Shown here: piece after piece, positions 3,737-64,000 of the stretch
Numbering within the stretch: position 1 is the first letter of the stretch
How the letters are laid out: each line of letters begins with the position of its first letter
Sequence record: PP261279.1
Direction: 5' to 3' (one strand)
Source: Escherichia phage ECP2303
DNA length: 64,000 bases
Translations under genes and position numbers: made by a program
Notes under the pieces: model-generated
What the model was told of the DNA's origin: nothing
The model's database searches: none
The model's input: the letters and a program-made list of their open reading frames with translations, nothing else

Positions 3737-4648
3737 TTATTTTCCGTTAACTTTGTTGTAGTTTCCCTGCTCAGATGGGACTATGGTAGAAGGTCTTCCA
3801 TATTCCTGGTAATACCAATCCGCAGCAGATTGGGTAACACCGTTTTCATCTGTCCACATCATAGATTTGTATGGCTGCCACTCTTCTGCAGCATTTGTGG
3901 ATGCAGTGTCTGCAAATGCCCCTGTGTCCCTCTTGTTACCTACGTTACTGCCATTCTTACAATCGTTGACAGCACCTTTTTGCTGGGTCTTGCCTACTTT
4001 CTTAGGGTTGCTGTATACAGTTGCATTAACAACCTTGTTCAAGTAGAATGTGCGGAACTCTGTAAGTTCTACATCAAACACCATCGCAGCACCTTCACCA
4101 ACAGACTTGTTGGCAGAAAGACTGGTTATGATGTAGTTCTCAAGGAGCCTCTCCTCGGTAACCAAAGAAACCAACTGGCGCTTATTAATGATCTCAGTCA
4201 AAGCCTCCAGTGCAGCGCCTGGTCGCATAGATGCTGCAGGGTTTTTAGAGTCAGTATTCCTGTCAATGTAGTTTTGCTCATAGATTATGTGTGGTGATGT
4301 ATTTACCCTACCAGTAAAAGAAAATACACCATCTTTAATTACAGCGTGGTCTGACAGGGTAGATTTATCTTCCACCGCAAAATCAGTCTTATCAACAGAA
4401 TGTTTGAAAGAGTAATTCTCAATCTGATCGAAGATGATGGCAAGATCGTTAGTAAAGTTTTTGCCCTTCATCTCCGTATTGCGACCACCATAGTTAAGAC
4501 CGCTGACAAACATAGTGTACTTTACATCGCTTTCAGTTTGTTGCTCTGCCTTTTCAGCCTTTGGAGATTTAACCTCTTGAGGCTTGTACAGGTCTTTTTC
4601 ATCAACTATATTGCTTGGCATAACCTCTCCAGGACACTCCGATACCAT
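3737..4648 (-). CDS. tail protein, hypothetical
   Basis: 303-aa ORF immediately downstream of the tape measure gene and its terminator. Confidence 0.4.
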   Translation of the reverse strand: MVSECPGEVMPSNIVDEKDLYKPQEVKSPKAEKAEQQTESDVKYTMFVSGLNYGGRNTEMKGKNFTNDLAIIFDQIENYSFKHSVDKTDFAVEDKSTLSDHAVIKDGVFSFTGRVNTSPHIIYEQNYIDRNTDSKNPAASMRPGAALEALTEIINKRQLVSLVTEERLLENYIITSLSANKSVGEGAAMVFDVELTEFRTFYLNKVVNATVYSNPKKVGKTQQKGAVNDCKNGSNVGNKRDTGAFADTASTNAAEEWQPYKSMMWTDENGVTQSAADWYYQEYGRPSTIVPSEQGNYNKVNGK

Positions 4649-4727: not shown

Positions 4728-7067
4728 TTACCAAAGATCTGTTGACATAAAGTTAATATCCTTGTTGTTCTCCCACTCAAGTTTTGCATCAAGTATTTTG
4801 CTAAACTCCCCCTCATCTATTGAAATCGTGATTTTACCATCACTAATCTCTAAAGGGAGCATTTCCATAGTTCTTAATTGAGAAGCAAAACCAGGGCCAC
4901 CGGGCAACGGAAGAGTCCCTCCCGGTAAGGTGTCCAAAGGATCAACAAACCCGTTACCTCCAGATATGATATCTTTGCGAATCATATCGCTGATAGTATC
5001 CAGTTGCTGATTTCTCTCACTCAGTGGGTTGAAACGGTCATTAAATAACTCCCCGGCGCTTAATATTGTACCGATAATACCAAGCTTACCAAGCAGGCCA
5101 ACTTTACCACCAGGTGTCTTGAGGCCACCTCCCCCTTTTCCTGCCGCACCACCACCAGATCCTTCTGTGGTAGCTGCACCTGCACCTGCTGCTCCAGCTG
5201 CACCTCTTATAGAACTAAGGAATTTGAAGGTTTTTACAAGCATAGATGCCATGACAAAACCTTTTGTCAGGGCGTTCACTACCAGCATAATGGCAGCAGC
5301 AAACCCTGCCCATTTAGCATAGCTAAAGGTGTCATTAAGCTCTTCAGAATATTCCTTCGTCTTAGCTGTTATGAGTCCCCATTTAATCCCCCATTCAAGG
5401 AAAAACATGCGGATCTTGACTATGGTATTGTTTAGTTCACCAACTACCCAGTTGAGACCTCTCACAAAACCACTAACAAAATCACCAGAGGCATCCCACA
5501 CAAATTGCAAAGTCTCACCAGTGCGAATCAGTGTATAATAGAACTCTGTTAGTTCATCAGCCCAACGGGTGAATAGTTTCTGACGAGACAGTTCAATGAA
5601 GGTTTTCAGTCTGTTTTCTGCCAGTACGTTAGACTTCTGCATTCTTTCATAACCAGCTGCAGATGCCTCGTTCATGTACTTAGCCACATACTTCATGATC
5701 TTGGCTGTCTTAACCTCACCTTTCTTCATCATGTCCATGAACTGATCCATGGATAGTTCAGAAAGACCAAAAGCCTCTTTGGTGGCTTTGATAAAAGGTT
5801 CGTATGCACCAGGCAATGCTTCAGCAAGTTGTTGCTTCAGTTCTTCGGACATTACCTGTCCTTTACCGAGCATTTGCTGGATTGCCATGATGCCACGCTG
5901 GTATTTTACCTCATCTGCACCGTAAGCAGCAGCATACTGTGAGTATGCAGAGAATAGCTCATGCACCTCTTGATTTGTCATCTGGTTTTTGGCGTTTACC
6001 GCCATCTGGGCGTAACCTTGAAGACCAGATTTGAGATCAAAACCAAGACGCATAGCCTCTTGCTGGACAAACGCAACCTCACTGTTGGCTTTGTTTGGAT
6101 CTCCAGTAACAGCAGTAAGAGCAGCACTTGCCCCCTCCATCATGTGACCAGATCTGTTCACAGCAGTAAATCCAGAGAAAGCCGTATACGCAGCTGTTGC
6201 ATTAATAACAGACCTACGTAAGTCTCTCATGGCATCACCAAGTGTAAGCGTTTGGCTGGTGGCGCTTTTAAATCCAGACTGCAGAGCTGACAGGTGGGCG
6301 TTAAAGGTTGACTTTTTCATCTCTCCGCGAGCAAACCTGGACTCTAACTCTGAGTATCCTGGCAAGCTTCCACGGAATCCGGCCCCATACTTGGCAGAAA
6401 GTCTTATCGCAGAGTTGTAGAGGTGGGTTCTCCTTGCCTCACGATCCGACATAAGCTTATTATCCATACCAGCTTTACTGTCTCTTCTTAGCTGCCTATG
6501 ATAACGATTCATAGCGGCTGTCTGAGCTTTCACAAGGTTAGGGTCGGAAGCCACACCACCCATATTAGGGTTACCTGGGATATACTTGAAAGATTTGGCA
6601 TTAGCCAAAACTCTTGCCTTAGGTGCCTTATAACCGCCGTAAGACACTGGTGCAGATTTGGTAGCCTTTTTGGCCTCTTTAGCTTGCTGCTGGTAGAACT
6701 TACGCATCCTAGCCATTTCTGGATTTTTAGCGGTAAGATTACCCACAGCTTGTTTACGTCTCGCGTTCTCCCTACGTTCTATTGCAGCCCTTACTGCAGC
6801 CTCTTTCTTGGCCTGTGCTACGCTCTCCCTGTGCAGTTTAGCATTTGCCTGATATTGCTGTCTGGCAACCCGCTGCATTGTTTGCTGGGTTTTAACAGCC
6901 ACTGCCTGCCATCTACTCATTGGGTTGGCTGAGTTAAAATCCTCGCCCAGTTTCCTGAACTCCCTCCCAATACTGCGAATTTTCTCTACAGCTTTTTTGT
7001 AGGAGGAGTTCTCTATCTCAAAGCCAATCTTGTTGACTGTTGTGGCAACTATTTTGTTTGTAGCCAT
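4728..7067 (-). CDS. tail tape measure protein
   Basis: 779 aa, long helical/Ala-rich protein with a Gly-rich segment, located directly downstream of the tail chaperone pair. Confidence 0.8.
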   Translation of the reverse strand: MATNKIVATTVNKIGFEIENSSYKKAVEKIRSIGREFRKLGEDFNSANPMSRWQAVAVKTQQTMQRVARQQYQANAKLHRESVAQAKKEAAVRAAIERRENARRKQAVGNLTAKNPEMARMRKFYQQQAKEAKKATKSAPVSYGGYKAPKARVLANAKSFKYIPGNPNMGGVASDPNLVKAQTAAMNRYHRQLRRDSKAGMDNKLMSDREARRTHLYNSAIRLSAKYGAGFRGSLPGYSELESRFARGEMKKSTFNAHLSALQSGFKSATSQTLTLGDAMRDLRRSVINATAAYTAFSGFTAVNRSGHMMEGASAALTAVTGDPNKANSEVAFVQQEAMRLGFDLKSGLQGYAQMAVNAKNQMTNQEVHELFSAYSQYAAAYGADEVKYQRGIMAIQQMLGKGQVMSEELKQQLAEALPGAYEPFIKATKEAFGLSELSMDQFMDMMKKGEVKTAKIMKYVAKYMNEASAAGYERMQKSNVLAENRLKTFIELSRQKLFTRWADELTEFYYTLIRTGETLQFVWDASGDFVSGFVRGLNWVVGELNNTIVKIRMFFLEWGIKWGLITAKTKEYSEELNDTFSYAKWAGFAAAIMLVVNALTKGFVMASMLVKTFKFLSSIRGAAGAAGAGAATTEGSGGGAAGKGGGGLKTPGGKVGLLGKLGIIGTILSAGELFNDRFNPLSERNQQLDTISDMIRKDIISGGNGFVDPLDTLPGGTLPLPGGPGFASQLRTMEMLPLEISDGKITISIDEGEFSKILDAKLEWENNKDINFMSTDLW

Positions 7068-10936: not shown

Positions 10937-11413
10937 TTATTTTTGCTGTCCAATTTTAAAGGTTGCAGATTCCAGCAGCACATCGTAATGCCGCATAGCC
11001 TCGTTGAAGCCCTTCTCTTGTGCCCACTGCTCACTAACAGTAGGGTTACTAAACTGCCCAGCCTCAATAACAAACTGGATAGCTTTGGCTCCTGTGTCCC
11101 CCATCTGCTTAAGAACAGCCTCTGCACTTGATCCTCTAGCCATAGCTCTCAACAATTTTTCTGTCAAGGTCTGCAGTTGCGTGCTGTGAAATGCAAAGGC
11201 CGTCTCCATGAAATTGCGAACAGGCAGCCCGTTCCAACCGAAGTTGTGAATAGCTGCCAATGTTGCCATATTTAAGCCTGACGGGTGAGGTTCATCATAA
11301 AAGCCGTAGGTTATTGTTTTGCTTTCAAGTTTCACAAGGTCTTTATAAAAGCGATCTAAACGCTTTAAGTTGAACCTTGTTTGACATTTAACCTTTAGCA
11401 TTATATTCCTCAC
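10937..11413 (-). CDS. neck / head completion protein, hypothetical
   Basis: 158-aa ORF in the neck region. Confidence 0.35.
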   Translation of the reverse strand: MRNIMLKVKCQTRFNLKRLDRFYKDLVKLESKTITYGFYDEPHPSGLNMATLAAIHNFGWNGLPVRNFMETAFAFHSTQLQTLTEKLLRAMARGSSAEAVLKQMGDTGAKAIQFVIEAGQFSNPTVSEQWAQEKGFNEAMRHYDVLLESATFKIGQQK

Positions 11414-12134: not shown

Positions 12135-12989
12135 TTATGCCAGTGCAGCCTCAAAATCTTTCATCATATTTTGGAAAGTTTTTGCCTTACTTAAGGTAAC
12201 ACCGTACTCTTTAGCAAAGGTTTGGAGTGCATCTTTTGAACCACTTTTGTCATCTTCGTTGTTAAGAGCTGCGGCTTGCTGCAGTATGGCATCAGTATCA
12301 CTGTGAGAAGATCTTGATTCTTGTGCCTGTTCAGGATCCTGCTCAGTACCTTCCGTACCTTCCGGTGCAGTCGGGCCTGGTGATTCCTCGCCGCCACCAC
12401 CAGGTTCAGTAGGGCCTACAGGTGGCTCCGGCTCAGGTTCAGGCTCTGGAGCCACTGTAGAAGTTAGCCCAAGATTTACAACCTGAGAACGTTTCTTAGG
12501 CCACTCAATAGTGAAAGTTTGGGTATCTTCTTCATAAACAATGCTGCATTGCTCATCGTTTATGGTCACTTTTTTAGGCATCCCTACAGGGTCCCACAGA
12601 TGTCCCTCTGCCACGGAAACTTTGAAAGCGGCATCTACCTCTTTAAACACTGACGGAGTGAGTGTGATATTGACATCTCCGCTTTGCAGTGTTAAAGTGC
12701 TTTCATCAAGGTTCTCTGTGAAGAACAGAAGAATAACACCCATACGGATAGTTGAAATACCGGTATCAATTGGCAGGCCTGTATGTTTTGCAATCTTCTC
12801 GAAGAAGTCTACAATAGTTCTGCATGGATAGTGAACACTGCCAATAACGAATTCTGTTGGTGGCAGCAAGGCTGATAAACCAACATTGATTTCTGGGTTA
12901 TATTGTGCTAAAAATTGATAGAAACTTAACTGATTGTTGAAAACTCTTAATAGAGGATCATACTCAACTGGATATACGGCTCTCTTCAC
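12135..12989 (-). CDS. structural protein with Pro/Glu-rich linker
   Basis: 284 aa with a central PEPEPEPEPPVGPTEPGGGG linker separating two domains; sits just after the capsid gene terminator. Confidence 0.4.
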   Translation of the reverse strand: MKRAVYPVEYDPLLRVFNNQLSFYQFLAQYNPEINVGLSALLPPTEFVIGSVHYPCRTIVDFFEKIAKHTGLPIDTGISTIRMGVILLFFTENLDESTLTLQSGDVNITLTPSVFKEVDAAFKVSVAEGHLWDPVGMPKKVTINDEQCSIVYEEDTQTFTIEWPKKRSQVVNLGLTSTVAPEPEPEPEPPVGPTEPGGGGEESPGPTAPEGTEGTEQDPEQAQESRSSHSDTDAILQQAAALNNEDDKSGSKDALQTFAKEYGVTLSKAKTFQNMMKDFEAALA

Positions 12990-17660: not shown

Positions 17661-19208
17661 TTAGATAAAACGCTTGAACATAGAAGGTGATGAGATTGAT
17701 GGAATCACACAAGGCAGCGCTACCTCCTCTTTCTCTAGGAAATTAATCGCAGAAGCTACACAGTCGGCCCAGTCGTCTTTTCTGTTAAATGTTGATCTTT
17801 CCCCGTTGAACTTTTCAAGTTCAGTCAGAAATGCTTCCAGAGTGTCAGGATGGAAACTGGATTTTACAATCCTCACCATTCCTTGTTGGGCAAGATTGGC
17901 AAAAGGTGAGAACCTTGTCAGTTTAGATTTGTTGGAAGGCATTGGATCTTCTTCAACCCTGAACCCTTCGGCGAGCAAGGATCTGGATGAGGTTAAGAAC
18001 TCACTCTTACCTGCCTGGCCGGGGTCCACAGAAAATACGATTATGCAATCATCTCCATCAAACTGTGCCTGTTTCCTGATGATCACATCTCGTTCCCCAG
18101 CCTTTTTACAGAACTTGCCTTCCAGACCTGTGGAATACCTACCGTCATCCACGTTCTCAGGACAATAATCTCCGGACAGGTAATAAAAGCCGTCGCTATC
18201 TTTACTTACCTTAACACTGGCGGTAAAGTCAGGAAATTTATTACCGGAAGTTCTCTCGGTCCCTGCCTTATCCCATGCCCTGCAAGATACTGATCCAAGA
18301 GGTACTCTATCGGCATCCCGAAGGAAAGATCTTTGGAAATAGTTTGCACCCTCAGGTTTGGCAAACCAGTTGCCATGAAGAAGCTGGGCTTTTTCAAGCT
18401 CTGGCAGACCTTCAAGGAAAGCAAGGTATTCTGGGTTGTCTCTCAAGCAGACAGGATTATCGAAAATTGTTGCGCCTATAAACGAGAATGACAACGGTCT
18501 TGGCTTGATCTCCACACCCAGTCCGTTAACCGTGGTGTATTTCTCTATTAACTCTTCTTTAGAGTCTCCCCAAATAAATTCACCGTCGCGTCGGATAAAA
18601 TATCTTTTCTTACCACATTTCTCCGGATCTGGATACCCTTCATCGTCCAACCACCACCTAACCAGTTTGGCAAGCATGTGTTCTGAGTCGGGGTTACAGC
18701 TGATAACCATTCTTGATGGATACTTTGACTGAGATCGCAGACGAGACATCAAATAGTCTATCTGCTCCCATTCGAATTGCGTGCCTTCATCGAAGCAAAC
18801 CATGGTGTACTCAAGGCCTTGATGGTTAAGCTTATCTTGGACATACTCCATGTGGCAGTATTTTACAACGGCCCCCTTTTTGCTCCTATCCCACTTGCCA
18901 GTGCTCGGATCAAACCGTGGAAAAATAAACTTATGATCCTTCTCTCTGAACTTTGGTTTAATGTTTTCAGGCAGATCACTGTAAATAGCTACTGCTTTAG
19001 GCCATAGCCCACCCTCACCTTCCAACTGGGGAGTTGTTCTTCGGAACATAACCACAGAGCTGTGCGGGTCATCAATAATTTTAAGCGGCATTAGCTGCAA
19101 GAGGAACGACTTGCCAGACCCAGCTGCACCTCCGATCACCAAAATATCTGCATCGTTCTCTAGGATCATCTTCTGCTTTTCAGAACACGGTCCGTAAATC
19201 TTAGACAT
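17661..19208 (-). CDS. terminase large subunit
   Basis: 515 aa with an N-terminal Walker A (VIGGAAGSGKS) and a C-terminal nuclease-like region. Confidence 0.85.
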   Translation of the reverse strand: MSKIYGPCSEKQKMILENDADILVIGGAAGSGKSFLLQLMPLKIIDDPHSSVVMFRRTTPQLEGEGGLWPKAVAIYSDLPENIKPKFREKDHKFIFPRFDPSTGKWDRSKKGAVVKYCHMEYVQDKLNHQGLEYTMVCFDEGTQFEWEQIDYLMSRLRSQSKYPSRMVISCNPDSEHMLAKLVRWWLDDEGYPDPEKCGKKRYFIRRDGEFIWGDSKEELIEKYTTVNGLGVEIKPRPLSFSFIGATIFDNPVCLRDNPEYLAFLEGLPELEKAQLLHGNWFAKPEGANYFQRSFLRDADRVPLGSVSCRAWDKAGTERTSGNKFPDFTASVKVSKDSDGFYYLSGDYCPENVDDGRYSTGLEGKFCKKAGERDVIIRKQAQFDGDDCIIVFSVDPGQAGKSEFLTSSRSLLAEGFRVEEDPMPSNKSKLTRFSPFANLAQQGMVRIVKSSFHPDTLEAFLTELEKFNGERSTFNRKDDWADCVASAINFLEKEEVALPCVIPSISSPSMFKRFI

Positions 19209-20312: not shown

Positions 20313-20389
20313 TGGTCTCCACGGAGTGATTCGAACACTCGACCTCCTGATCCCAAATCAGGCGCTCTACCAAGCTGAGCTACGCGGAG
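20313..20389 (-). tRNA. tRNA-Pro (anticodon UGG)
   Basis: Hand-folded cloverleaf: T-loop TTCGAAT, anticodon loop UUUGGGA, CCA encoded. Confidence 0.7.
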
Positions 20390-20400
20390 TATTTATTATT

Positions 20401-20475
20401 TGGTGGCCCTGGGTGGAATTGAACCACCGTCTGGCGATTATGAGTCGCTTGCTTGAACCTTCCAGCTACAGGGCC
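20401..20475 (-). tRNA. tRNA-Met or Ile2 (anticodon CAU)
   Basis: Hand-folded cloverleaf: T-loop TTCAATT, anticodon loop CUCAUAA, CCA encoded. Confidence 0.65.
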
Positions 20476-20476
20476 A

Positions 20477-20552
20477 TGGTGCTGATGGCAGGACTTGAAC
20501 CTGCAACCTATTGATTACAAATCAATTGCACTGACAATTGTGCTACATCAGC
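20477..20552 (-). tRNA. tRNA-Thr (anticodon UGU)
   Basis: Hand-folded cloverleaf: T-loop TTCAAGT, anticodon stem AUUGA/UCAAU with loop UUUGUAA, CCA encoded. Confidence 0.65.
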
Positions 20553-20556
20553 AAAA

Positions 20557-20655
20557 GGTGCTAGGTGATGGAATCGAACCACCTATGTATTCAACGACTA
20601 CCTCGTCTATTTTCAGGATTAAAAATCCTCGCCCTTGCCAAAGGGCTTACCTAGC
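20557..20655 (-). tRNA. tRNA-like element, atypical (~99 nt; anticodon unassigned)
   Basis: Canonical acceptor stem (GCTAGGT/ACCTAGC), D arm and T arm (GGTGG-TTCGATT-CCATC), but two internal hairpins both have 5-nt loops, so there is no 7-nt anticodon loop. Confidence 0.4.
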
Positions 20656-20743
20656 GCAATATGTTGACCATGTGGCTAGTCGGCGATGACGACTGTAACA
20701 TTTGATAATCCGGTTCTGCTTCCGGCTTTCGCTTAATTACAAG

Positions 20744-20834
20744 GTCAACAATGTGGCGGAGAGTAATGGAATCGAACCATCATCGAGTTATCCTCAACGG
20801 GACGGTTTTCAAGACCGCTTGAGCACCATTGCTC
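20744..20834 (-). tRNA. tRNA-Ser (anticodon UGA)
   Basis: Class II tRNA with a long variable arm; anticodon loop CUUGAAA, T-loop TTCGATT, CCA encoded. Confidence 0.65.
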
Positions 20835-20958
20835 CCTACCCTCCTTTATAAATTACACTGATAATGACACTGATTTTCGAGCAGTTAGTGACTAGTATAA
20901 ACGACGATAAATATCAATGTCATTATCTGTATGATTTATGCATTTAAAAATATAAATT

Positions 20959-21045
20959 TGGTGGGGAGTGGTGGAGTCGAACCACCCGAGTCGCAATGAC
21001 AATAGATTTACAGTCTACACCGCTACCTCTACGGGATAACTCCCC
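20959..21045 (-). tRNA. tRNA-Tyr (anticodon GUA)
   Basis: Class II-like with a long variable arm; anticodon loop CUGUAAA, T-loop TTCGACT, CCA encoded. Confidence 0.6.
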
Positions 21046-21049
21046 AATT

Positions 21050-21124
21050 TGGCACCCCGTACTGGACTCGAACCAGTGTCAACGGCTTAGAAGGCCGCTG
21101 CTTTATCCACTAAGCTAACAGGGC
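21050..21124 (-). tRNA. tRNA-Arg (anticodon UCU)
   Basis: 75 nt; anticodon loop CUUCUAA, T-loop TTCGAGT, acceptor stem with two G-U pairs, CCA encoded. Confidence 0.6.
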
Positions 21125-21182
21125 ACTGGGTGGCTTTCTTTTACACCTGAGCCGCCAGAAAAGGTGGGAGACCATGTTTATA

Positions 21183-21211
21183 ATATTACACTGTTAGGCA
21201 AAGTTTGTCAA
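21183..21211 (-). promoter_or_regulatory. sigma70-like promoter upstream of the tRNA cluster
   Basis: Minus strand TTGACA-N17-TAATAT, about 60 nt upstream of the tRNA-Arg 5' end. Confidence 0.5.
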
Positions 21212-21220
21212 GAAAATATT

Positions 21221-21559
21221 TTAACTATTGCCAACAGGCTGTATTTCTGTGGTAAATGGCATAAAAGGTGCTGGTTTTTCAGCCTCTTCTACTACCACCT
21301 CTTCCTCTTCACCAAACATCTCATCATATTCTTCCTGCATTCGGTCTGCCTTATCAAGAACATACTCTGCAATGCTTTGACGAATATTTTGTTTGGTTTT
21401 CGGGTCCAACATCAGCTCTCTTAAAACTTTGTGAGCTTCTGGAACCATCGCTATAAAAGATTCCTTCATATCAAGGATGTTCTTCTCTAGCTGAATGGCG
21501 TTGGACTCCTCTTTCAGAGGTCTGCCTCTACGGCGACGCTTTTTAGTTGTATCCGCCAT
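21221..21559 (-). CDS. small basic protein, putative DNA-binding
   Basis: 112 aa from an internal ATG with GGAGGAAAC Shine-Dalgarno; N-terminal KKRRRRGRP patch; a TATCACGTGATA palindrome lies 12 nt upstream of the start. Confidence 0.5.
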   Translation of the reverse strand: MADTTKKRRRRGRPLKEESNAIQLEKNILDMKESFIAMVPEAHKVLRELMLDPKTKQNIRQSIAEYVLDKADRMQEEYDEMFGEEEEVVVEEAEKPAPFMPFTTEIQPVGNS

Positions 21560-21570
21560 GTTTCCTCCAT

Positions 21571-21599
21571 TATCACGTGATAGGTGGATTTTATCACGG
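21571..21599. promoter_or_regulatory. operator-like palindrome TATCACGTGATA plus a TATCACGG half-site
   Basis: Perfect 12-bp palindrome at 21571-21582 and TATCACGG at 21592-21599, in the 5' leader of the gene starting at 21559. Confidence 0.45.
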
Positions 21600-21904
21600 C
21601 AAATACTGATTGTCAAGTTCGCCGCAGGGTGGTATTCCCTGCGACTTGCCCAGCGTCCTGGACCAGCAAGACCCAACAAGTGGGTTACCAGATACCCATT
21701 ACCGCGCTCTGGCTCGACCTTATTACAGGTTGGCTGGGGTCACATCGTCATGTGCTGGCTGCCCCTACCATTTTAAGTGTGGTGCACTATCAAGCCCTCT
21801 AAGGGGAACTCAGACTTCTCCGAACCCTGTTTCAAAGCATCCGGAGATAAAGCCATCAAACTCATCTTTAAATTGGATATTCATCATGATACACGAAAAC
21901 AACC

Positions 21905-22147
21905 TCATTGTAAAGCACAAATAAATAAAACATACTTAATTTGTTTGTTATCGGGCTCAGGGTAGAAGTAGAAGATCTTGCTATCACCAATCTGCACACC
22001 ACCATCCCAACAACATAAACCATAACCCGTATTCATACAAGCTAAGTCGTTTGCAAAATCTATTGCATCATCTAGTGCACGAAATTCACCTTCATCTTCT
22101 AAATAATCCTCATTCATGGAACGGAAAACGAGCTTAACCTTAAACAT
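21905..22147 (-). CDS. hypothetical protein
   Basis: 80-aa acidic ORF. Confidence 0.4.
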   Translation of the reverse strand: MFKVKLVFRSMNEDYLEDEGEFRALDDAIDFANDLACMNTGYGLCCWDGGVQIGDSKIFYFYPEPDNKQIKYVLFICALQ

Positions 22148-22223
22148 AGCATTACCTGTAGACCTCGTAAGTTAAAATTGTATCACATCATATTGCAGAT
22201 CTTATCAGGTAACATTATTTTTG

Positions 22224-22412
22224 TCAACAGATTCCGGCCTTATCCCTCCTGTCTGCGTATTCTTTAATCGCAACCTCACCTGCATTGGTAACCAGATCTT
22301 CAAAGTAATTCTCAAGCTCCTCGTCAATGTCCGGTGACCAGCTCTTTTTCCTGTCAGTGTGAATTGCAGACTTGTTGAACTTATTACAATTCTTTGCTAC
22401 CGGATTGTTCAT
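22224..22412 (-). CDS. hypothetical protein
   Basis: 62-aa ORF co-oriented with neighbours. Confidence 0.3.
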   Translation of the reverse strand: MNNPVAKNCNKFNKSAIHTDRKKSWSPDIDEELENYFEDLVTNAGEVAIKEYADRRDKAGIC

Positions 22413-22422
22413 TAAGCTCTCC

Positions 22423-23001
22423 TCAACGTTCGTAGTAAATCTTATTCAACATTACCTCATCGTTTGCAGAAAGGATATCAAGATATGCATCACCAAATCT
22501 GCCTGCAACAACCTCTGCATGATACATCACTTCGTTAACATCGTCAAGAGTGATAACCGGATGACCATATCTTTCTGAATATTGTCTCAGTGTGCGATGT
22601 AACGAGTCGTCATCATATGCAGACTTTTTAATATCACAAACACGACGAATGGCCTTGATGTCGAAAAAACCTGTGCGATACCACCCAAGAAAAAAGTTCC
22701 GTGTAGTGTCAACATCTACATCAATACCATTAAGAACCTTATCTACAAGATAGCTGTCATCCTTTGGACTAGCGTCCTTAGTGCGAATGTAGTTGCCATC
22801 TTTTCCAGGTGATAGCTCCTTCTCATCACCAACTTGCATGCCATCATTTGGCGGTGTTAGCCACTTATCAGGATGCTTACGATCACGAGCGTTAGAATGA
22901 TTACGCTGGAAACCTGGCTTCCACTTGAAAGTTTTCTCCATCTGTTCTTCATTCTGATAACGTTTTGCAATCTTTTCACTGGCATCTTTGCGTGAACTCA
23001 T
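22423..23001 (-). CDS. hypothetical protein
   Basis: 192-aa ORF. Confidence 0.45.
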   Translation of the reverse strand: MSSRKDASEKIAKRYQNEEQMEKTFKWKPGFQRNHSNARDRKHPDKWLTPPNDGMQVGDEKELSPGKDGNYIRTKDASPKDDSYLVDKVLNGIDVDVDTTRNFFLGWYRTGFFDIKAIRRVCDIKKSAYDDDSLHRTLRQYSERYGHPVITLDDVNEVMYHAEVVAGRFGDAYLDILSANDEVMLNKIYYER

Positions 23002-23385
23002 AGCAGACTCCTCTTCAAGTTATAGAAAAACTCACTGTATCGCTTTGTAACGAGCTTTTCTATCAAACTGGTGCGATTGCCTTACTTGGTATAGTTTATA
23101 TAGCTGTGGAGCGATTTAGGGGCCTTCTTGTCAGTTTCCACACATAAACTTTATCCGAACTCGCGCGGGAGGCTCTCAACCGACTCCTTCCGGCGCTGGC
23201 AAGCTTTCGTCGGTGGTACACATTAGTGCTCGGCCTTTGGCCTGCGCTATCGCTTCGCTCCCACACATGTTAACAGTCCTGCATGTATGCACTTCTGTTA
23301 TTGTGTGCACTATGGAGGCCCGGCATCTCGCCCCTCGTAGGCGAGTGCCAATGAAGGGCCGACACTACCCATAATAAGTAATAAA

Positions 23386-23505
23386 TTTAAAACATGGTAC
23401 TTAGGATCTAGTATATTCTACATAAGTTAAGTATATGTACTTTAGTACCATAAGTACTAGATCTTTTATTTTTATTATTTAGTTATTTTAGTTATATTCT
23501 TTATG
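23386..23505. repeat. AT-rich region with dyad-symmetry elements (putative DNA-unwinding element)
   Basis: Inverted elements GATCTAGTA / TACTAGATC and CATGGTAC / GTACCAT, then a ~45-bp run of TTTTATT-type sequence. Confidence 0.5.
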
Positions 23506-23587
23506 TGTCCGTATCACGGACAGTTAGTGTCCGTATTACGGGCAGATGTGTCCGCGTGACGGACAGTAGTGTCCGTATCACGGACAG
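23506..23587. repeat. four tandem ~21-bp iterons, each an 18-bp palindrome TGTCCGTATCACGGACAG (two exact, two variant)
   Basis: Copies at 23506, 23528, 23549 and 23570 with 21-22 bp periodicity; each has arms TGTCCGT / ACGGACA around a 4-nt centre. Confidence 0.8.
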
Positions 23588-23661
23588 TTACTAACCTCTG
23601 TTCCAGAGTGAACATAAAACATACAAATCCTTATAGTACAGATGTTTAAGTTTTTACTGGT

Positions 23662-24012
23662 CTAACCAGTTGTTGACATTCGAATAACTTCTTCTGGTGG
23701 CAAAACTTTGTAAAATGTGCATCTTTTACCTCTCCCTTGTGTGGATATTTCAACCACTCCTGCACATTCTAAAGTTTTAACGCACGCTGCTGCTTTTGTT
23801 TTCTTTATCCCAACATCTGCTGCAATTTTCCTTGTGCTGGGTGTGAAGCGTGAATTTTCTCCAAGCTTATACCAGTTGTGCAGATAGCAGTATACGATCT
23901 TGTCATATAAGTCAAGAACAACAACCTCCCCAGTTGTGTCATTCAAAACTTTTGACATAGACAGTATTTCAAGGGGGACTTTAAGATATAGCAGCTTATC
24001 CCCATCTTTCAT
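23662..24012 (-). CDS. winged-helix DNA-binding protein (putative iteron-binding regulator or initiator)
   Basis: 116 aa with an HTH-like segment STRKIAADVGIKKTKAAACVKTLECAGVVE; its 3' end sits ~75 bp from the iteron array. Confidence 0.45.
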   Translation of the reverse strand: MKDGDKLLYLKVPLEILSMSKVLNDTTGEVVVLDLYDKIVYCYLHNWYKLGENSRFTPSTRKIAADVGIKKTKAAACVKTLECAGVVEISTQGRGKRCTFYKVLPPEEVIRMSTTG

Positions 24013-24059
24013 ATCTCCTGATTCTCCTTGTGTGGCAATTTTCTTTAAAATAGCAGGGA

Positions 24060-24614
24060 TTACTCCCCGCTGTCAATAGCAAGACTCATTGCAATACGGT
24101 ATGCCTCTTCTAATGGTAAGAGTCTCCCCCACACATCCCAACCGACATCAAACTGCCTGCCAAACAACTGCTGTGTGGTTCCGTGAGCATGACCGAACAG
24201 TTGGACTGATCCGTGAGGCTTTCTGTTCCACTTTGCAAACTGGTAATGGCTCATACAGATCAAATTCTTGTTGTGGCGAAGCTCGTAATAATCTACAACC
24301 TCATGACCGAACTCTTTCATAATTCTGACAGTCGTTCTTGTGTCATGGTTACCACGAACAAGAATAATATGTCCGTTCAACATATTTAGAACATCTGGAA
24401 GCAGTTTGTTGATATTCTTATCATTAGTGCACGCAATATCCCCCAAGTGAAACACAGTGTCTGCAGGTGACACAACAGAGTTCCACTTGGTGATGATTCC
24501 CGCATTCATACTGTCAAGATTGTGATCATACTGAGATCTGTGTTTTTGACATGAGTCGAACTCCATTACCCGCTGGTGGAGAAAGTGTGTGTCGCTTGTT
24601 ACAAAGTATTTCAT
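24060..24614 (-). CDS. calcineurin-like metallophosphoesterase
   Basis: Track ORF trimmed to the Met with a GAGGA Shine-Dalgarno; motifs SDTHF, GDIA, GNHD, GHAHG of the metallophosphatase superfamily. Confidence 0.7.
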   Translation of the reverse strand: MKYFVTSDTHFLHQRVMEFDSCQKHRSQYDHNLDSMNAGIITKWNSVVSPADTVFHLGDIACTNDKNINKLLPDVLNMLNGHIILVRGNHDTRTTVRIMKEFGHEVVDYYELRHNKNLICMSHYQFAKWNRKPHGSVQLFGHAHGTTQQLFGRQFDVGWDVWGRLLPLEEAYRIAMSLAIDSGE

Positions 24615-24621
24615 ACATTCC

Positions 24622-25032
24622 TCATTTAAGTTTAATGCAGTTTTTAAGCTGGCGTTCCATACGATCCACAACCCTGTCTGGAACATCATGAATGCTTTTA
24701 TTACCATGGCGGTTTTCAACCACGATCACGGTATAACTATATCCATGACTGATCGCCATGTCAATATATTCTTGCACATATTTTTCTTTTGTAAACGTAT
24801 TACTTACCACGATACGGTCGTAGCCCATACGCATCATATCTTCTACGTTATCTTTGCACCATTTTGCTGCAAGTGTTACTTTACTTGCATCCCAATTGTA
24901 ATTGCCGTCATCGTCGTACCAGAACATATCGTTCTCAAAATGTGGATACAGACCTTCTAAAGATAGCGCATTTGCCAGTGTTGATTTGCCAGACCCTGGT
25001 AGACCACGCACGATATATAGCATTTTAGACAT
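24622..25032 (-). CDS. P-loop polynucleotide-kinase-like protein
   Basis: 136 aa from the Met with a GGAGAG Shine-Dalgarno; Walker A GLPGSGKST and overall resemblance to the T4 Pnkp kinase domain (recalled from memory, not aligned). Confidence 0.6.
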   Translation of the reverse strand: MSKMLYIVRGLPGSGKSTLANALSLEGLYPHFENDMFWYDDDGNYNWDASKVTLAAKWCKDNVEDMMRMGYDRIVVSNTFTKEKYVQEYIDMAISHGYSYTVIVVENRHGNKSIHDVPDRVVDRMERQLKNCIKLK

Positions 25033-25060
25033 AGTAACTCTCCGTTTTAATTTTAATGAT

Positions 25061-25089
25061 AGTATACCTAACTGTTTTGTTAATTTCAA
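25061..25089 (-). promoter_or_regulatory. sigma70-like promoter for the kinase/phosphoesterase operon
   Basis: Minus strand TTGAAA-N17-TATACT about 25 nt upstream of the kinase start; divergent from the ligase promoter. Confidence 0.5.
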
Positions 25090-25092
25090 GTG

Positions 25093-25121
25093 TTGACACC
25101 AGGTTATTTGTGTGGCAGAAT
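25093..25121 (+). promoter_or_regulatory. sigma70-like promoter upstream of the RNA ligase gene
   Basis: TTGACA-N17-CAGAAT (weak -10) 30 nt upstream of the ligase start region. Confidence 0.4.
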
Positions 25122-25150
25122 AAAGGGACAAAATGACAAATGAGGAATGT

Positions 25151-26068
25151 ATGATGAAGTATTTTAATGCAGACGACCTGGTTGACAAAGGTCTTGTAAC
25201 CAGCAGATATTACCCAGATCTTGGATTAAAGATCTACAAATATGCCAGAAAAGTATTCTACAACAATTTATGGCATTTGTCTCCGCGTTTACTAGAGTGC
25301 CGAGGCATTGTTGTCGGTAATGAAGGAAATGTTGTGGCATGGCCCTTCACAAAAGTGTTTAATTTGGGAGAAAACTCCACCAACCTGCCTGACAATAAAC
25401 TTGTGACGGCGGTAGAGAAAAAGAACGGATTCCTTGGTGTGGTATCATCTCATAAAGGTGAACTATTGTTTTCAACAACCGGGTCTCTTGATTCTCCATA
25501 TTGTAACCTTGCAAAGGAAACCATCCAGGAGCAATGTGGTAATTTAGATCTCATCAAAAAGGTTATGGGCCATGAAAACATGACATTCATGTTTGAAATT
25601 TGTCACCCTTCAGATCCGCATATTGTTCAGGAAGACCATGGCGCATATTTGATAGGTTGCAGATATAACGATTCTGGAATAATGCTACCAGAAGCAGCTT
25701 TAGATGGGATTGCCAAATACCTTGGTGCAAAACGTCCTCACACTGTGCGTGAAATTCCGTTCAGCTATGCAAAAGAATTAGCTGCAGAAACAAGAGGTGA
25801 AGGGTATATGATTCGTAAGCCTTACTACCCTTATGATCTGCAGCTGAAGATCAAGTCTCCATACTATTTGGCACGGAAGGCCGTAATGAGGGGTAAAGCT
25901 TGGAAGATTTGGGATGATGATATCTTTAAACGTATTGACGAAGAGTTTTACGGCATGGTAAACTTCATTCGTAACAATTACACAGAAGATGTGTGGAACT
26001 GCCTCCTAGAGCAGGAACGCCGTGAGATACTTGACTGCTATTTCCACAACGAGGACTATATGCAATGA
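25151..26068 (+). CDS. RNA ligase, T4 Rnl1 (gp63)-like
   Basis: Blocks LECRGIVV, FNLGEN, EKKNGFL (KxxG nucleotidyltransferase lysine motif), FSTTGSL, FMFEICHP match T4 Rnl1 as recalled from memory; start taken at the ATG after GAGGAA (track start 25133 also possible). Confidence 0.75.
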   Translation: MMKYFNADDLVDKGLVTSRYYPDLGLKIYKYARKVFYNNLWHLSPRLLECRGIVVGNEGNVVAWPFTKVFNLGENSTNLPDNKLVTAVEKKNGFLGVVSSHKGELLFSTTGSLDSPYCNLAKETIQEQCGNLDLIKKVMGHENMTFMFEICHPSDPHIVQEDHGAYLIGCRYNDSGIMLPEAALDGIAKYLGAKRPHTVREIPFSYAKELAAETRGEGYMIRKPYYPYDLQLKIKSPYYLARKAVMRGKAWKIWDDDIFKRIDEEFYGMVNFIRNNYTEDVWNCLLEQERREILDCYFHNEDYMQ

Positions 26069-26415
26069 AGAAGTTGATTGTGTGGCTGGATGACTTGAGA
26101 GATCCGTCAAATTATGGGCTCCCAGATGCTCTTTGGCTAAAGAATTCCTCTGAGTTTATGGATTTTATTAACGATAAGGGAAAGCTCTACAGGCGCGTTT
26201 CTGAGTGGCACATGGACAACGACCTTGGAGAGGTATTTGAAGGGTACGATTGCCTATCTATGCTGGAGGAAAAATTTGTATTTGGTAAGCCTCCTGTAGT
26301 TGACAACGTGAAGATTTTCGTGCATACTTCTAACCCATCAGCTGCTCGTAAATTCATGCTTGCTGCTGACTCGTTTAAAAAGTTTGGAATAGAGATTAAA
26401 CAAAACATCTACTGA
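26065..26415 (+). CDS. hypothetical protein co-transcribed with the RNA ligase
   Basis: 116 aa, start overlaps the ligase stop (ATGA). Confidence 0.5.
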   Translation: MKKLIVWLDDLRDPSNYGLPDALWLKNSSEFMDFINDKGKLYRRVSEWHMDNDLGEVFEGYDCLSMLEEKFVFGKPPVVDNVKIFVHTSNPSAARKFMLAADSFKKFGIEIKQNIY

Positions 26416-61911: not shown

Positions 61912-61931
61912 CCACACATAGTTTGGAGAAT

Positions 61932-62033
61932 ATGGAATACACAATGAGAACATTGTCCGAAGTTTTAGTGGTGATCCTGATGATCATTACGTCCATAGCG
62001 GCTGTTGCCGGAATACTCACAGGTGGGACATGA
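61932..62033 (+). CDS. hydrophobic micro-protein (33 aa), not in the ORF track
   Basis: GGAGAA Shine-Dalgarno; MEYTMRTLSEVLVVILMIITSIAAVAGILTGGT; stop overlaps the next start. Confidence 0.4.
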   Translation: MEYTMRTLSEVLVVILMIITSIAAVAGILTGGT

Positions 62034-62242
62034 TCAACACACATGCATCTGAAGAGACATCCAAAGGAGTGACCATATGTCCCTTGGCTGAGCCAGTTAA
62101 AGAGGAAAACTTAGATTCTGAGGACTCTTCATCTTCGTCCCAGACAGATCCTGAGGCTGATGACCTAACGTGGGAAGACATCGTAGATATCTGGTTCTCT
62201 ATTATGCCTGAGCACGAAGAGTTCAGAGGTGGCAGACTATGA
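62030..62242 (+). CDS. small acidic protein
   Basis: 70-aa ORF, Ser/Asp/Glu-rich. Confidence 0.4.
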   Translation: MINTHASEETSKGVTICPLAEPVKEENLDSEDSSSSSQTDPEADDLTWEDIVDIWFSIMPEHEEFRGGRL

Positions 62243-62363
62243 AGCACCGAGCCCACACAGGTTCCTCATGCTAAAGCATGGCCTGAAGAGGCAAACGTGT
62301 ATAATTATTGTGCATTGGAACGTATAAAACCCTGTTCACACTCTCATTCCCAGAGGAGATTTT

Positions 62364-62579
62364 ATGAAGATAGAGATATTTGGTGGAGCTGACAACACTC
62401 GTGGCCTGATTTACCTTGAATTCGATGAATCATACCTGCCAGAGGTGTTAAATATAGACTCTGTTGCTGAGGCTTTGGGAGTAAACCCTAAAGAACTCCA
62501 CTCTTGTGCTGAGATCGATGGCTGGGAAGAGACCATGAACATTGATTTCAGTGAAGTAGAGGATGAACCGCTGGACTGA
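62364..62579 (+). CDS. small acidic protein
   Basis: 71-aa ORF with GAGGAGA Shine-Dalgarno; last clear gene before the ORF-poor region. Confidence 0.45.
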   Translation: MKIEIFGGADNTRGLIYLEFDESYLPEVLNIDSVAEALGVNPKELHSCAEIDGWEETMNIDFSEVEDEPLD

Positions 62580-62930
62580 CACACAATTAGCTGCCCGGCT
62601 AAAGTGCTGGAAGCACCTATAACACATCTTTCAACTAAATTTCCCACCACCACAATCACTTACCTTCCACACATGACTGTTTGCTTGTTTAGTGAGCAGT
62701 CATGCCTTGACATTCTTGCCTATCCTGATAAAATTAAGTTCTTCTCTTTTCTTTTACCGAGTAATTCGGGTTTTCTGTTCTCTTCGGTTTGAAGGGGGTA
62801 TGGAGATACACCTGAGTGAACAGGGTGAACAACCGAACATTTGGCTATGGCATTAGCATGGCGAAGCGGACGGGTGACGAAAGAGGGGCCGGAGGACACC
62901 AGTCACTGCCATATGACATATGGGTGATAA

Positions 62931-63473
62931 CCTGAAGAGTCTGAATAAGTGTTTAAGTACCAGTCAGAGGAAAAGGTGAATGGTAGCCGAAGGGGAGGGG
63001 GGTTTCTTGTATCTTTAATTTGTATATTATGTATACACTTGTAAACCAATATCATCTAAATCTGTTTACCACACAAAGTGGATAGAGACAAATATTACCT
63101 ATTAAACTTGAATTATTTATAGAAAATACCACAACACCACTTAAGTCTTTGATTTTACACACAAATCTTACAGATATTCAACCTCCATATTTAACATACC
63201 TGTAACATATTCCATACTCTACCTGCCTGATCAATTTCCCCAACTACATCCTCATATTTTCCCTGTCTGTACTACCCCTGCCCCGCCGGGAGTCCCGTCA
63301 TATCTGGCTTTCCAGCAAATATCACACCCACAAATATCATTGCCTGAAGAGGGTTTCATCCCATAATACCTGCCTTACCTGAAGAGCGCTTCATACACCA
63401 CGTAAATTTTTTTTTTTTAATTGACCCCCTGCCCCGCCGGAGAGGTTGGCTTTTCCCACACAGACCTGAAGAG
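62931..63473. repeat. dispersed short direct repeats in an ORF-poor region
   Basis: CCTGAAGAG at 62931, 63343, 63378, 63465; CCCTGCCCCGCCGG at 63276 and 63426; T12 homopolymer at 63407-63418. Confidence 0.6.
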
Positions 63474-64000
63474 TCAGCCAGAAATATCTGAACAGGTCTA
63501 GTTCTGCCACGATTTTGACCTGACCTACAGGAGAGCTGCCAGGCGGACGAAATGGGAATACTTCTCATTCTTATAACAATTCTCAAATATCAAGGCAGTG
63601 AGGCAAATTAATAGGTGAGGCCGTTCACACAGTGGCACAACATTTGCAACCTATCTTGTGTGGAGGAATGAGAATACCTATCATTGTGAGAACCATTATC
63701 ATTACGGGCAATTTAACATAATACCCATTATGCGCACCACTGGCGATACATACAGGGATTGATAACATGAGTTACTGTTTACGCATATAACAATTATATT
63801 TCTTACTATTTGTGTGGGATATAGTTAGCAACCAATAGATTAGATATTGACCTGCAGACTTCTGACCGTCCAGACGTCTAAACGCCCACACACCAAGGGT
63901 TATACATACATTCCTGAATGTAAACAGGGCCGCAAAAATGCTACCATACCAGTTTGTAAATTTTTCATGCAGCACTTGACAAAGAGGAGAAAAACTTGTC

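Follow-up and report, generated by a model that had tools for sequence, protein, structure and literature searches.

A conserved GC-rich hairpin array beside the iteron region of rV5-like Escherichia phages shares cassettes with Escherichia coli plasmids

Structured Elements at Replication Origins

The ssi/primase sites are clusters of stable stem-loops found at or beside an origin, as in the complementary-strand origin of phage G4, ssiA and ssiB of the RSF1010 oriV, and the R1 'G site' near oriR; the RSF1010 ssi signals lie on both strands. GNA mini-hairpins occur at primase start sites, such as those of phage G4 (GCGAAAGC) and RSF1010 ssiA (CCGAAGG), and in the hairpin promoters of phage N4, and they are far more stable as DNA than as RNA; d(GCGAAGC) serves as the prototype for these very stable DNA mini-hairpins with a GNA triloop (PMC13037366).

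Origin transcripts form another class, for instance ColE1 RNA II, the T4 oriF/oriG R-loops, and the T7 primary origin, in which an AT-rich unwinding region is preceded by a structured segment. The iteron origins, including RK2 oriV, pSC101, P1, and lambda ori, are known for direct repeats, an adjoining AT-rich stretch, and a neighbouring winged-helix initiator gene; in RK2 oriV, the AT-rich region also borders a G+C-rich segment whose role is unclear. Non-coding sequence can also be common to a phage and an element that interacts with it, as in the helper-mimicking cos of P4, copied from P2, and the pseudo-ToxI RNA of the rV5-related phage phiTE; such sequences are modular and repeat-like and turn over fast.

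The rV5-like phages, which are common among E. coli phages and find use in therapy and biocontrol, are to our knowledge essentially uncharacterised with regard to their replication origin and non-coding elements. The island described here is a real, conserved, and structured element that does not code for protein, always lies next to a putative iteron origin, and is common to these phages and a family of plasmids.

Its resemblance to the ssi sites, which were compared with it by position and hairpin type, would extend to reading as a single strand, to the independence of initiator-binding repeats, and to the GNA-type mini-hairpins. In contrast to ssi sites, the hairpins of the island and the plasmids are shuffling cassettes with constant CCCACACA linkers, and the plasmid versions resemble a transcription unit with a terminator. 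As with origin transcripts, a candidate transcript of the island would run toward the AT-rich region; however, the phage has no conserved promoter, and most plasmids terminate before the iterons. A ColE1-type RNA II primer was rejected on the position of this terminator and on the lack of an RNAI/RNAII-type match in Rfam, and the iterons and initiator present here are absent in ColE1. The likeness to iteron origins lies in the four direct repeats, the adjoining AT-rich stretch, and the nearby winged-helix initiator gene, whereas the GC-rich part here consists of approximately 250 bp of covarying hairpins that are conserved apart from the iterons and common to another replicon family. Unlike the helper-mimicking elements, its units are not identical tandem repeats, it has no adjacent toxin gene, and it is not a cos site, and the helper–satellite relation is here read from gene content. 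A type III toxin–antitoxin RNA (ToxI-like) was also rejected; the island has no tandem repeats, its cassettes differ from one another, and its neighbours are a 192-aa protein and a replication initiator.

Genomic Setting of the Island

The window, i.e., the whole 64,000-nucleotide stretch of phage DNA that was analysed, is 100% identical over 22900-23700 to Escherichia phage ECP2309 (PP464953); it corresponds to the final 64 kb of that record, whose full 136-kb genome was used for the genome-wide searches. The same segment of 22900-23700 is matched at 90% identity or more by 118 phage records, all of which are Vequintavirus (rV5-like myoviruses). Among these records, 18 (MG0656xx) are labelled 'Campylobacter phage', and as they are at least 90% identical across the region, the host assignment looks doubtful.

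Genes to the left of approximately 25100 are on the - strand and include the structural genes, a cluster of seven tRNA genes predicted by ARAGORN at 20313-21124, and the neighbours of the island, while the genes to the right are on the + strand. The locus is ordered as island, AT-rich stretch, four iterons, and initiator gene. The AT-rich stretch (23371-23500; GC 0.192), a candidate DNA-unwinding element, lies between the island and the iterons, which are four copies of GTGTCCGTATCACGGACAGTTA at 23505-23590 with a spacing of 21-22 bp, each copy being itself a palindrome (TGTCCGTATCACGGACA). The gene at 23662-24012 (- strand) encodes a 116-aa winged-helix replication-initiator-like protein with Pfam DUF6945 and HTH_36, and its product matches the PHROG category 'replication initiation protein' (phrog_12838 at 2e-78, also phrog_8102 and phrog_428). 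The marks of an iteron-type origin, namely, four repeats at 21-22 bp, an AT-rich stretch, and an initiator gene, thus belong to the neighbourhood and not to the island itself. The 116-aa initiator was found in the same 118 records as the island and in no others, which put syntenic loci in other genera of Vequintavirinae out of reach of the comparison.

On its other side, the island is followed by the gene of the 192-aa protein, which has no assigned family. Between the island and the start of this gene, there is a 12-bp inverted repeat (ATAGAAAAACTC / GAGCTTTTCTAT; 23022-23063) within a block conserved in all phage copies, and it may be an operator or a regulatory hairpin. Beyond the initiator gene, an RNA-repair-like cassette (phosphoesterase, polynucleotide-kinase-like AAA protein, and RNA ligase) together with a Sir2-like gene is located at 24060-26068, beside the origin region and near the tRNA cluster.

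Hairpin Modules of the Island

The preliminary description had placed a GC-rich island with local dyad symmetries beside an AT-rich/iteron region, and both observations hold. The GC content of 23120-23370 is 0.566 compared with 0.431 for the whole window and 0.40-0.41 for the flanking genes; it has the highest GC of all 251-nt stretches in the 64 kb, of which a fraction of 3e-5 reaches 0.566, and this island of 56.6% GC adjoins 130 bp at 19% GC and the four 21-22-bp iterons. The element itself probably extends from approximately 23113 (ATTTAGGGG) to approximately 23363, a start slightly earlier than first noted. Both strands fold better than dinucleotide-shuffled sequences, with RNA fold z-scores of -3.16 (+ strand) and -2.83 (- strand) and z-scores of -1.86 (+ strand) and -2.28 (- strand) under DNA parameters.

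The global folds given by RNAalifold for seven phage copies were inconsistent on both strands; therefore, only local helices were scored. Coordinates below are read on the + strand. The 5' region (23113-23163), which begins ATTTAGGGGCC and contains one CCACACA at 23138-23144, is a less conserved part with no helix supported by the comparison of copies, although its ATTTAGGGG(C/G)C is common to phage and plasmid arrays. The core module (23164-23222) is composed of GCGCGGGAGG followed by a stem and then (C)CACA; the 8-bp stem (23177-23184 / 23209-23216) encloses a 24-nt loop, TCCTTCCGGCGCTGGCAAGCTTTC, at 23185-23208. Hairpin H3 (23224-23249) has an outer stem at 23224-29 / 23244-49 and an inner GGCC-TTT-GGCC at 23232-35 / 23239-42. 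A mini-hairpin, GCTTCGC, which reads GCGAAGC on the - strand, follows at 23252-23258 by direct reading of the sequence, and the linker CCCACACA, the motif that joins the cassettes of plasmid arrays, is at 23260-23267. Hairpin H4 (23272-23299) pairs AACAG with CTGTT around an inner TGCA-TGTA-TGCA; it is half deleted in one phage copy (L057) and carries mismatches in two others (L058 and L060), and it appears dispensable. Hairpin H5 (23314-23363) has an outer stem at 23317-21 / 23356-60 and inner stems at 23322-25 / 23346-49 and 23327-32 / 23340-45, with a bulged T at 23326 and the loop CCTCGTA.

Three further pairings were tried and rejected. A closing helix of GUGGAGCGA with UCGCUCCCAC, proposed by the minimum free energy fold, was dropped because it is not conserved in L024, a divergent 137-kb phage contig (137,418 bp) from IMG/VR. 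A pseudoknot between GCGCGGGAGG and CCTTCCGGCGC of the core loop has seven invariant pairs and two variable pairs that are broken in the variants, and the comparison does not support it. The pairing of the linker CCCACACA with a downstream TGTGTG is also lost in L024. No tandem repeat family was found within the island.

Conservation and Covariation

The island is kept in all 118 Vequintavirus records (89-100% identity), so the conservation in relatives that the preliminary description had named as a check was found. Across seven divergent phage copies, the column identity is 0.95 in the core, 0.96 in H3, and 0.99 in H5, which is at or above that of the flanks, while the 5' region and H4 are at 0.90 and 0.87, respectively. 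The helices keep their pairing, with 95% of cells paired in the phage copies versus 28-49% when the partners were slid. For instance, 96% of the H3 cells are paired in eight phage copies, where the + strand shows an invariant U.G pair and a single change from A-U to G.U, and 97.8% of the H5 cells are paired versus 25-44% in the slid controls.

Variation within the phages is too low for covariation, which comes from the comparison with plasmids. In the core stem, three of the eight pairs are changed on both sides between phage and plasmids (A-U to G-C, C-G to U-A, and A-U to C-G), and two further pairs are changed to U.G, while the 24-nt loop is identical except for one C/A polymorphism. H5 has two compensatory G-C to U-A pairs between phage and plasmids L005 and L069. 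Slid controls gave no double changes and 25-60% pairing. Covariation, the other check proposed at the outset, thus amounts to five compensatory pairs in two helices; all of them stem from a single phage/plasmid lineage split and therefore represent few independent events. Stems that vary around fixed loops would be the signature of a hairpin read as a single strand and not of a duplex protein-binding site.

The full 136-kb genome has no paralogue of the island, only chance-level 9-11-mers. No counterpart was found on any E. coli chromosome, the matches in E. coli being confined to plasmids, and captured host DNA was rejected on this ground. The IMG/VR, one-genome-per-species, and metagenome collections were scanned with exact patterns of the core, which returned two phage contigs, one divergent and one near-identical, and two contigs of the plasmid type, the other matches being due to chance.

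Plasmid Homologues of the Island

Beyond the genus, homologues were found solely in circular plasmids of E. coli with a length of 13.2-14.3 kb (loci L005, L006, L007, L040, L046, and L061-L073; e.g., NZ_CP020521.1, CP148565.1, and NZ_CP035869.1). A 39.6-kb record with three matching places and three times the unit length is, for these reasons, probably a trimer. Thirteen of the loci were fetched after a search with the plasmid capsid protein, which revealed a tight family confined to E. coli, while IMG/VR scans anchored on the plasmid Rep and capsid proteins returned nothing.

The gene content of these plasmids comprises a major capsid protein and relatives of three window products, namely, a Dit-like protein (55% identity; window 3935-4492), a Neck1/tail-completion-like protein (49% identity; window 10973-11314), and a tape-measure protein (approximately 38% identity; window 5772-6797), together with a Rep of approximately 300 aa with HTH_36 and phrog_428, families also matched by the phage initiator. 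Neither a terminase nor a portal was among the annotated or matched genes of the plasmids examined. Judged by this gene content, the 13-kb plasmids look like plasmid-borne satellites of virulent rV5-like phages. The literature searched contained no description of this plasmid family or of an rV5 satellite, and nothing relevant on Vequintavirus non-coding RNA or transcriptome. The presence of the shared cassettes in plasmids with rV5-related structural genes suggests that a virulent myovirus has a family of satellites carried on plasmids.

Among the non-coding DNA matches of plasmid and phage, the island is by far the longest. In the plasmids, the array is made up of modular hairpin cassettes joined by the constant 8-nt linker CCCACACA; the cassettes differ from one another and are present, absent, or reordered between plasmids, and the phage island is a four-to-five-cassette version of the same array. 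There are two alternative 'core' cassettes among the plasmids. Type-1 plasmids have their core in common with the phage, and two plasmids also have H5 in common with it. Type-2 plasmids (approximately one-third) lack the phage-type core loop and H5 and share with the phage a junction that spans the 3' part of H3, the linker, and the start of H4. The core of type-2 plasmids has no match in the phage database. This sharing pattern makes the cassette pool a mosaic, and the recurrence of parts of the island in plasmids that carry capsid and tail genes makes it probable that the island is functional.

A + strand intrinsic terminator, with an 11-bp stem GCCTAAAGAG..CTCTTTAGGC followed by TTTCATTT, ends the plasmid array in 14 of 16 copies, and a weak sigma-70-like promoter (TTGTCA-16-AATTAT) lies upstream on the same strand. 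In approximately 16 plasmid copies, a distance of 100-150 bp separates the array from the iterons, which have at least four different sequences.

A separate 35-nt match of 91% links window 12285-12319, within a 284-aa head-region gene (12135-12989, - strand), to L005 2594-2628. In the plasmid, this match directly follows a near-consensus sigma-70 promoter (TTGACA-17-TATAAT), whose transcript would be antisense to the phage gene, and the region may encode a satellite antisense RNA against a head gene of the helper.

Proposed Role in the Origin Region

In L024, homology to the window runs from 22409 to 23363 at 83% identity, through the island, and then stops. The segment corresponding to window 23364-24049 (L024 1953-2807) is a replaced origin cassette with a different T-rich stretch in the same place, repeats of ATCTGATRCAAATATGTATC, and a 143-aa initiator-like protein; homology resumes at window 24050. 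An additional gene, for 287 aa, is present in this contig past the distal end of the 192-aa gene. Taking phages and plasmids together, the array is found beside iteron origins of at least six specificities and is, therefore, a part of the origin region that is independent of the initiator used. The link to origin function that had been suggested from the sequence is thus borne out as to position, which is what supports it, since the array stays by an AT-rich stretch and iterons in L024 and in the plasmids despite the changed iterons and initiators.

Our tentative choice among the readings is that the island is an initiator-independent structured element of the origin region, which works as a + strand transcript, as extruded single-stranded DNA hairpins, or as both; its replication role, its active strand, and its form as RNA or DNA are all inferred. 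The 116-aa initiator would bind the four iterons and open the adjoining AT-rich stretch, on the far side of which the GC-rich hairpin array would act as structured single-stranded nucleic acid, either as a + strand transcript directed toward the opened region, as hairpins extruded from the displaced DNA strands, or as both. Phage or host replication proteins, such as primase, helicase loader, or polymerase, might recognise the array, and DNA synthesis would start there. The satellite-like plasmids, with cassettes of the same pool beside their own origins, may use them for replication by the helper machinery. We propose that the array survives the exchange of iterons and initiator because the features recognised are the hairpins and their invariant loops and not the iterons. 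An array that stays fixed through swaps of the iteron/initiator cassette would represent the half of the origin that does not depend on the initiator, and as the one substantial non-coding sequence common to plasmids and phage, it makes a helper–satellite interaction testable.

Other observations bear on this origin reading to different degrees. The order of the locus, the stems that covary around fixed loops, the mini-hairpin types known from primase start sites, the Rep of the plasmids with families matched by the phage initiator, and the placement of the highest-GC stretch directly against one of the most AT-rich stretches of the window speak for it. Across the whole genome, the cumulative GC skew reaches its minimum at window 25043, at a distance of 1.45 kb from the iterons, but this minimum coincides with the switch in gene direction and is confounded with transcription, so it is weak evidence. 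The type-2 plasmids, which have no phage-type core loop, speak against the reading, and so does the enrichment of CCACACA across both genomes and not at the origin alone, which it does not explain. Given that the plasmids gain, lose, and shuffle cassettes and that one phage has lost half of H4, no module would be indispensable except perhaps the core. Most plasmid arrays end in a + strand terminator before the iterons, which suggests a discrete RNA and argues against transcript priming inside the origin.

Possible Form and Active Strand of the Element

A structured non-coding RNA had been proposed in the preliminary description, and it is the structured non-coding element that stands, being conserved, with stems that keep pairing and five compensatory pairs, while the RNA part found no backing in Rfam or in a conserved promoter or terminator of the phage. 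The Rfam scan that had been suggested gave no family match for the island at curated or permissive thresholds. Release 15 returned six tRNAs, all outside the island, for the whole window at the gathering threshold, and in the region 21100-23700 at E <= 10, it returned only a chance rli43 match (22.5 bits versus a gathering threshold of 100) spanning the AT-rich stretch; at E <= 1, nothing was found within the plasmid arrays, and no RNAI/RNAII family. ARAGORN detected no tRNA or tmRNA at 23100-23400. A consensus scan found no phage promoter at the 5' end of the island, where an extended -10 (TGGTATAGT; approximately 23088-23096) can be seen by eye that is not conserved in L024 or in another divergent copy, L059. 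The phage has no intrinsic terminator, H5 being without a U tract and followed by A-rich sequence.

The evidence leans to the + strand with weak to moderate strength, and single-stranded DNA hairpins fit about as well. The summed folding energy of the modules is -1069 kcal/mol on the + strand versus -1000 on the - strand, and the modules contain 111 versus 61 G.U pairs, respectively. Four pairs of the phage copies are G.U on the + strand, three of them through a one-sided substitution and one invariantly, while one pair is G.U only on the - strand. The loops of phage-type cassettes are pyrimidine-rich on the + strand and purine-rich on the - strand. Many cassettes are triloop mini-hairpins, such as C-GTA-G, CCC-GAA-GGG (which contains CCGAAGG), and T-GGA-A, with GCGAAGC on the phage - strand; triloops with stems of at least 4 bp are no more over-represented than in shuffled sequences, so the argument concerns the identity of the longer-stem triloops and is a weak one. 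For an ssi-type element, location and hairpin stability fit, the DNA fold z-scores are only -1.9 and -2.3, and covariation cannot tell DNA from RNA.

The main rival reading, possible if doubtful, is that the island acts in trans as a structured + strand RNA of approximately 260 nt, antisense in orientation to all neighbouring genes, whose hairpins and C/A-rich linkers bind or titrate a protein or an RNA; the plasmids would then make a longer modular version (approximately 300-600 nt), and helper and satellite might mimic each other's RNA. The promoter and terminator that bound the plasmid arrays on the + strand (the latter in 14 of 16 copies), the better + strand folding energy with more G.U pairs, and the fold z-score of -3.2 all agree with such an RNA. 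Similarly, the + strand linkers CCCACACA are free of G and should rarely mispair, a typical trait of unpaired RNA segments (the - strand reads UGUGUGGG), and the turnover of cassettes would fit an arms race or mimicry. On the phage side, however, the intrinsic terminator is missing, the only promoter-like site is the extended -10 that L024 and L059 do not conserve, no Rfam family matches, and the full phage genome holds no complementary target for the invariant loop beyond chance. The pyrimidine-rich + strand loops of the phage-type cassettes and the weakness of triloop mini-hairpins as RNA (PMC13037366) also disagree with it.

Possible Cassette Exchange and Packaging

A reading that we regard as speculative and, on balance, rather unlikely goes further and takes phage and plasmids to draw on one cassette pool, a new class of modular hairpin arrays with the linker CCCACACA, which are swapped by recombination at the linkers and in which the array is the interface of a helper–satellite conflict. 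If so, each side would copy or diversify hairpins read by a phage protein for replication, packaging, or RNA binding, and the satellite would either exploit the helper for its own replication or packaging or titrate one of the helper's factors.

Less probable still, and in our estimate improbable, is that the island or the repeated CCCACACA motifs form the pac site of a headful terminase, copied by plasmids without a terminase to be packaged by the helper. Arrays of short repeated motifs are typical of the binding sites of small terminase subunits. The plasmids carry capsid, Dit-like, Neck1-like, tape-measure, and Rep genes with no terminase or portal annotated or matched, and the island is by far their longest non-coding match to the phage, whose large terminase gene (17661-19208) is 4 kb away. 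Headful, pac-type packaging has been inferred by PhageTerm for a Vequintavirus (PMC13211470). Against such a site, the covarying stems and fixed loops point to single-stranded hairpins and not to duplex recognition; moreover, the type-2 third of the plasmids is without the phage-type core and H5, and the motif is spread over both genomes and both strands. The island is neither in nor beside the terminase gene, from which it is separated by spanin and tRNA genes, and no small terminase gene was identified in the PHROG matches.

Unlikely Readings: Decay and Protein Coding

A decaying remnant or captured DNA without function, with incidental GC richness, had been put forward as an alternative, and we reject it as highly improbable. 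It could appeal to the absence of a known family and to the change tolerated in H4 and the 5' region, but the presence of the island in all 118 relatives at 89-100% identity, the column identity of 0.95-0.99 in the core, H3, and H5 at or above the flanks, the compensatory changes, the retention across the swap of the origin cassette, and the lack of a counterpart on any E. coli chromosome all contradict decay.

The island had also been called free of open reading frames, which is accurate in that none exceeds 56 aa; the longest frames touching it are 56, 53, 44, 32, and 31 aa with GTG or TTG starts. Most records leave the stretch unannotated, while the 56-aa and 31-aa frames of the - strand are annotated as 'hypothetical protein' in some, e.g., as two CDS in MZ501061 of the BASEL collection. 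That these are small protein-coding genes is scarcely credible, even though the frame over the core stays open in several relatives, since the starts are GTG, the products are rich in Arg, Ser, and Ala as expected of translated GC-rich non-coding DNA, the frames are interrupted in relatives by 1-nt indels (one in L058 that corresponds to window 23219 and others in the H5 loop of L058 and L060) and by an 18-nt deletion in L057, and the substitutions relative to the plasmids pair across stems and follow these rather than codons, with no synonymous-like pattern.

The CCACACA Motif and Other Non-Coding Features

The CCCACACA / CCACACA motif occurs 12 times in the window versus 1.9 expected, on both strands, and 17 times in plasmid L005 versus 1.35 expected (approximately twelve-fold). 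The whole phage genome contains 65 CCACACA sites versus approximately 17 expected (approximately four-fold), and none of the models accounts for this genome-wide enrichment. The sites cluster around the island (approximately 23138-26085) and at 61912-63886 in the large non-coding region of 61.9-64 kb. Inverted pairs of the motif are present at window 24129+/24178- and at L005 2740+/2767-, and the motif is often just 5' of a hairpin.

Another GC-rich gap (approximately 21560-21900; GC up to 0.545) lies between a 112-aa and an 80-aa gene, just upstream of the tRNA cluster, and has no Rfam match at E <= 10. In the cluster itself, the 99-nt tRNA-like gene at 20557-20655 (- strand) is given a 4-base anticodon (atcc) by ARAGORN and reaches no more than 35.5 bits against the Rfam tRNA model. 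The gene may represent a tRNA that is unusual or interrupted.

Window 63541-64000 corresponds to PP464953 136404-136863, and match and motif positions recur at an offset of 136,404 bp. These offset positions, read without a direct alignment of the ends, suggest that the last approximately 460 bp of PP464953 repeat the first approximately 460 bp, which may reflect a terminal repeat or an assembly overlap of a circularly permuted genome. The ORF-poor region at 62600-64000 contains five copies of CCTGAAGAG, two of CCCCTGCCCCGCCGG(G)AG, and several CCACACA sites. It has in common with the plasmids a 25-nt match (63568-63592) and a 'CCCACACAGA..CCT(G/A)AAGAGTC' module. The cumulative GC-skew maximum is near this region, at record position 1519, just past the end of the window on the circular map.
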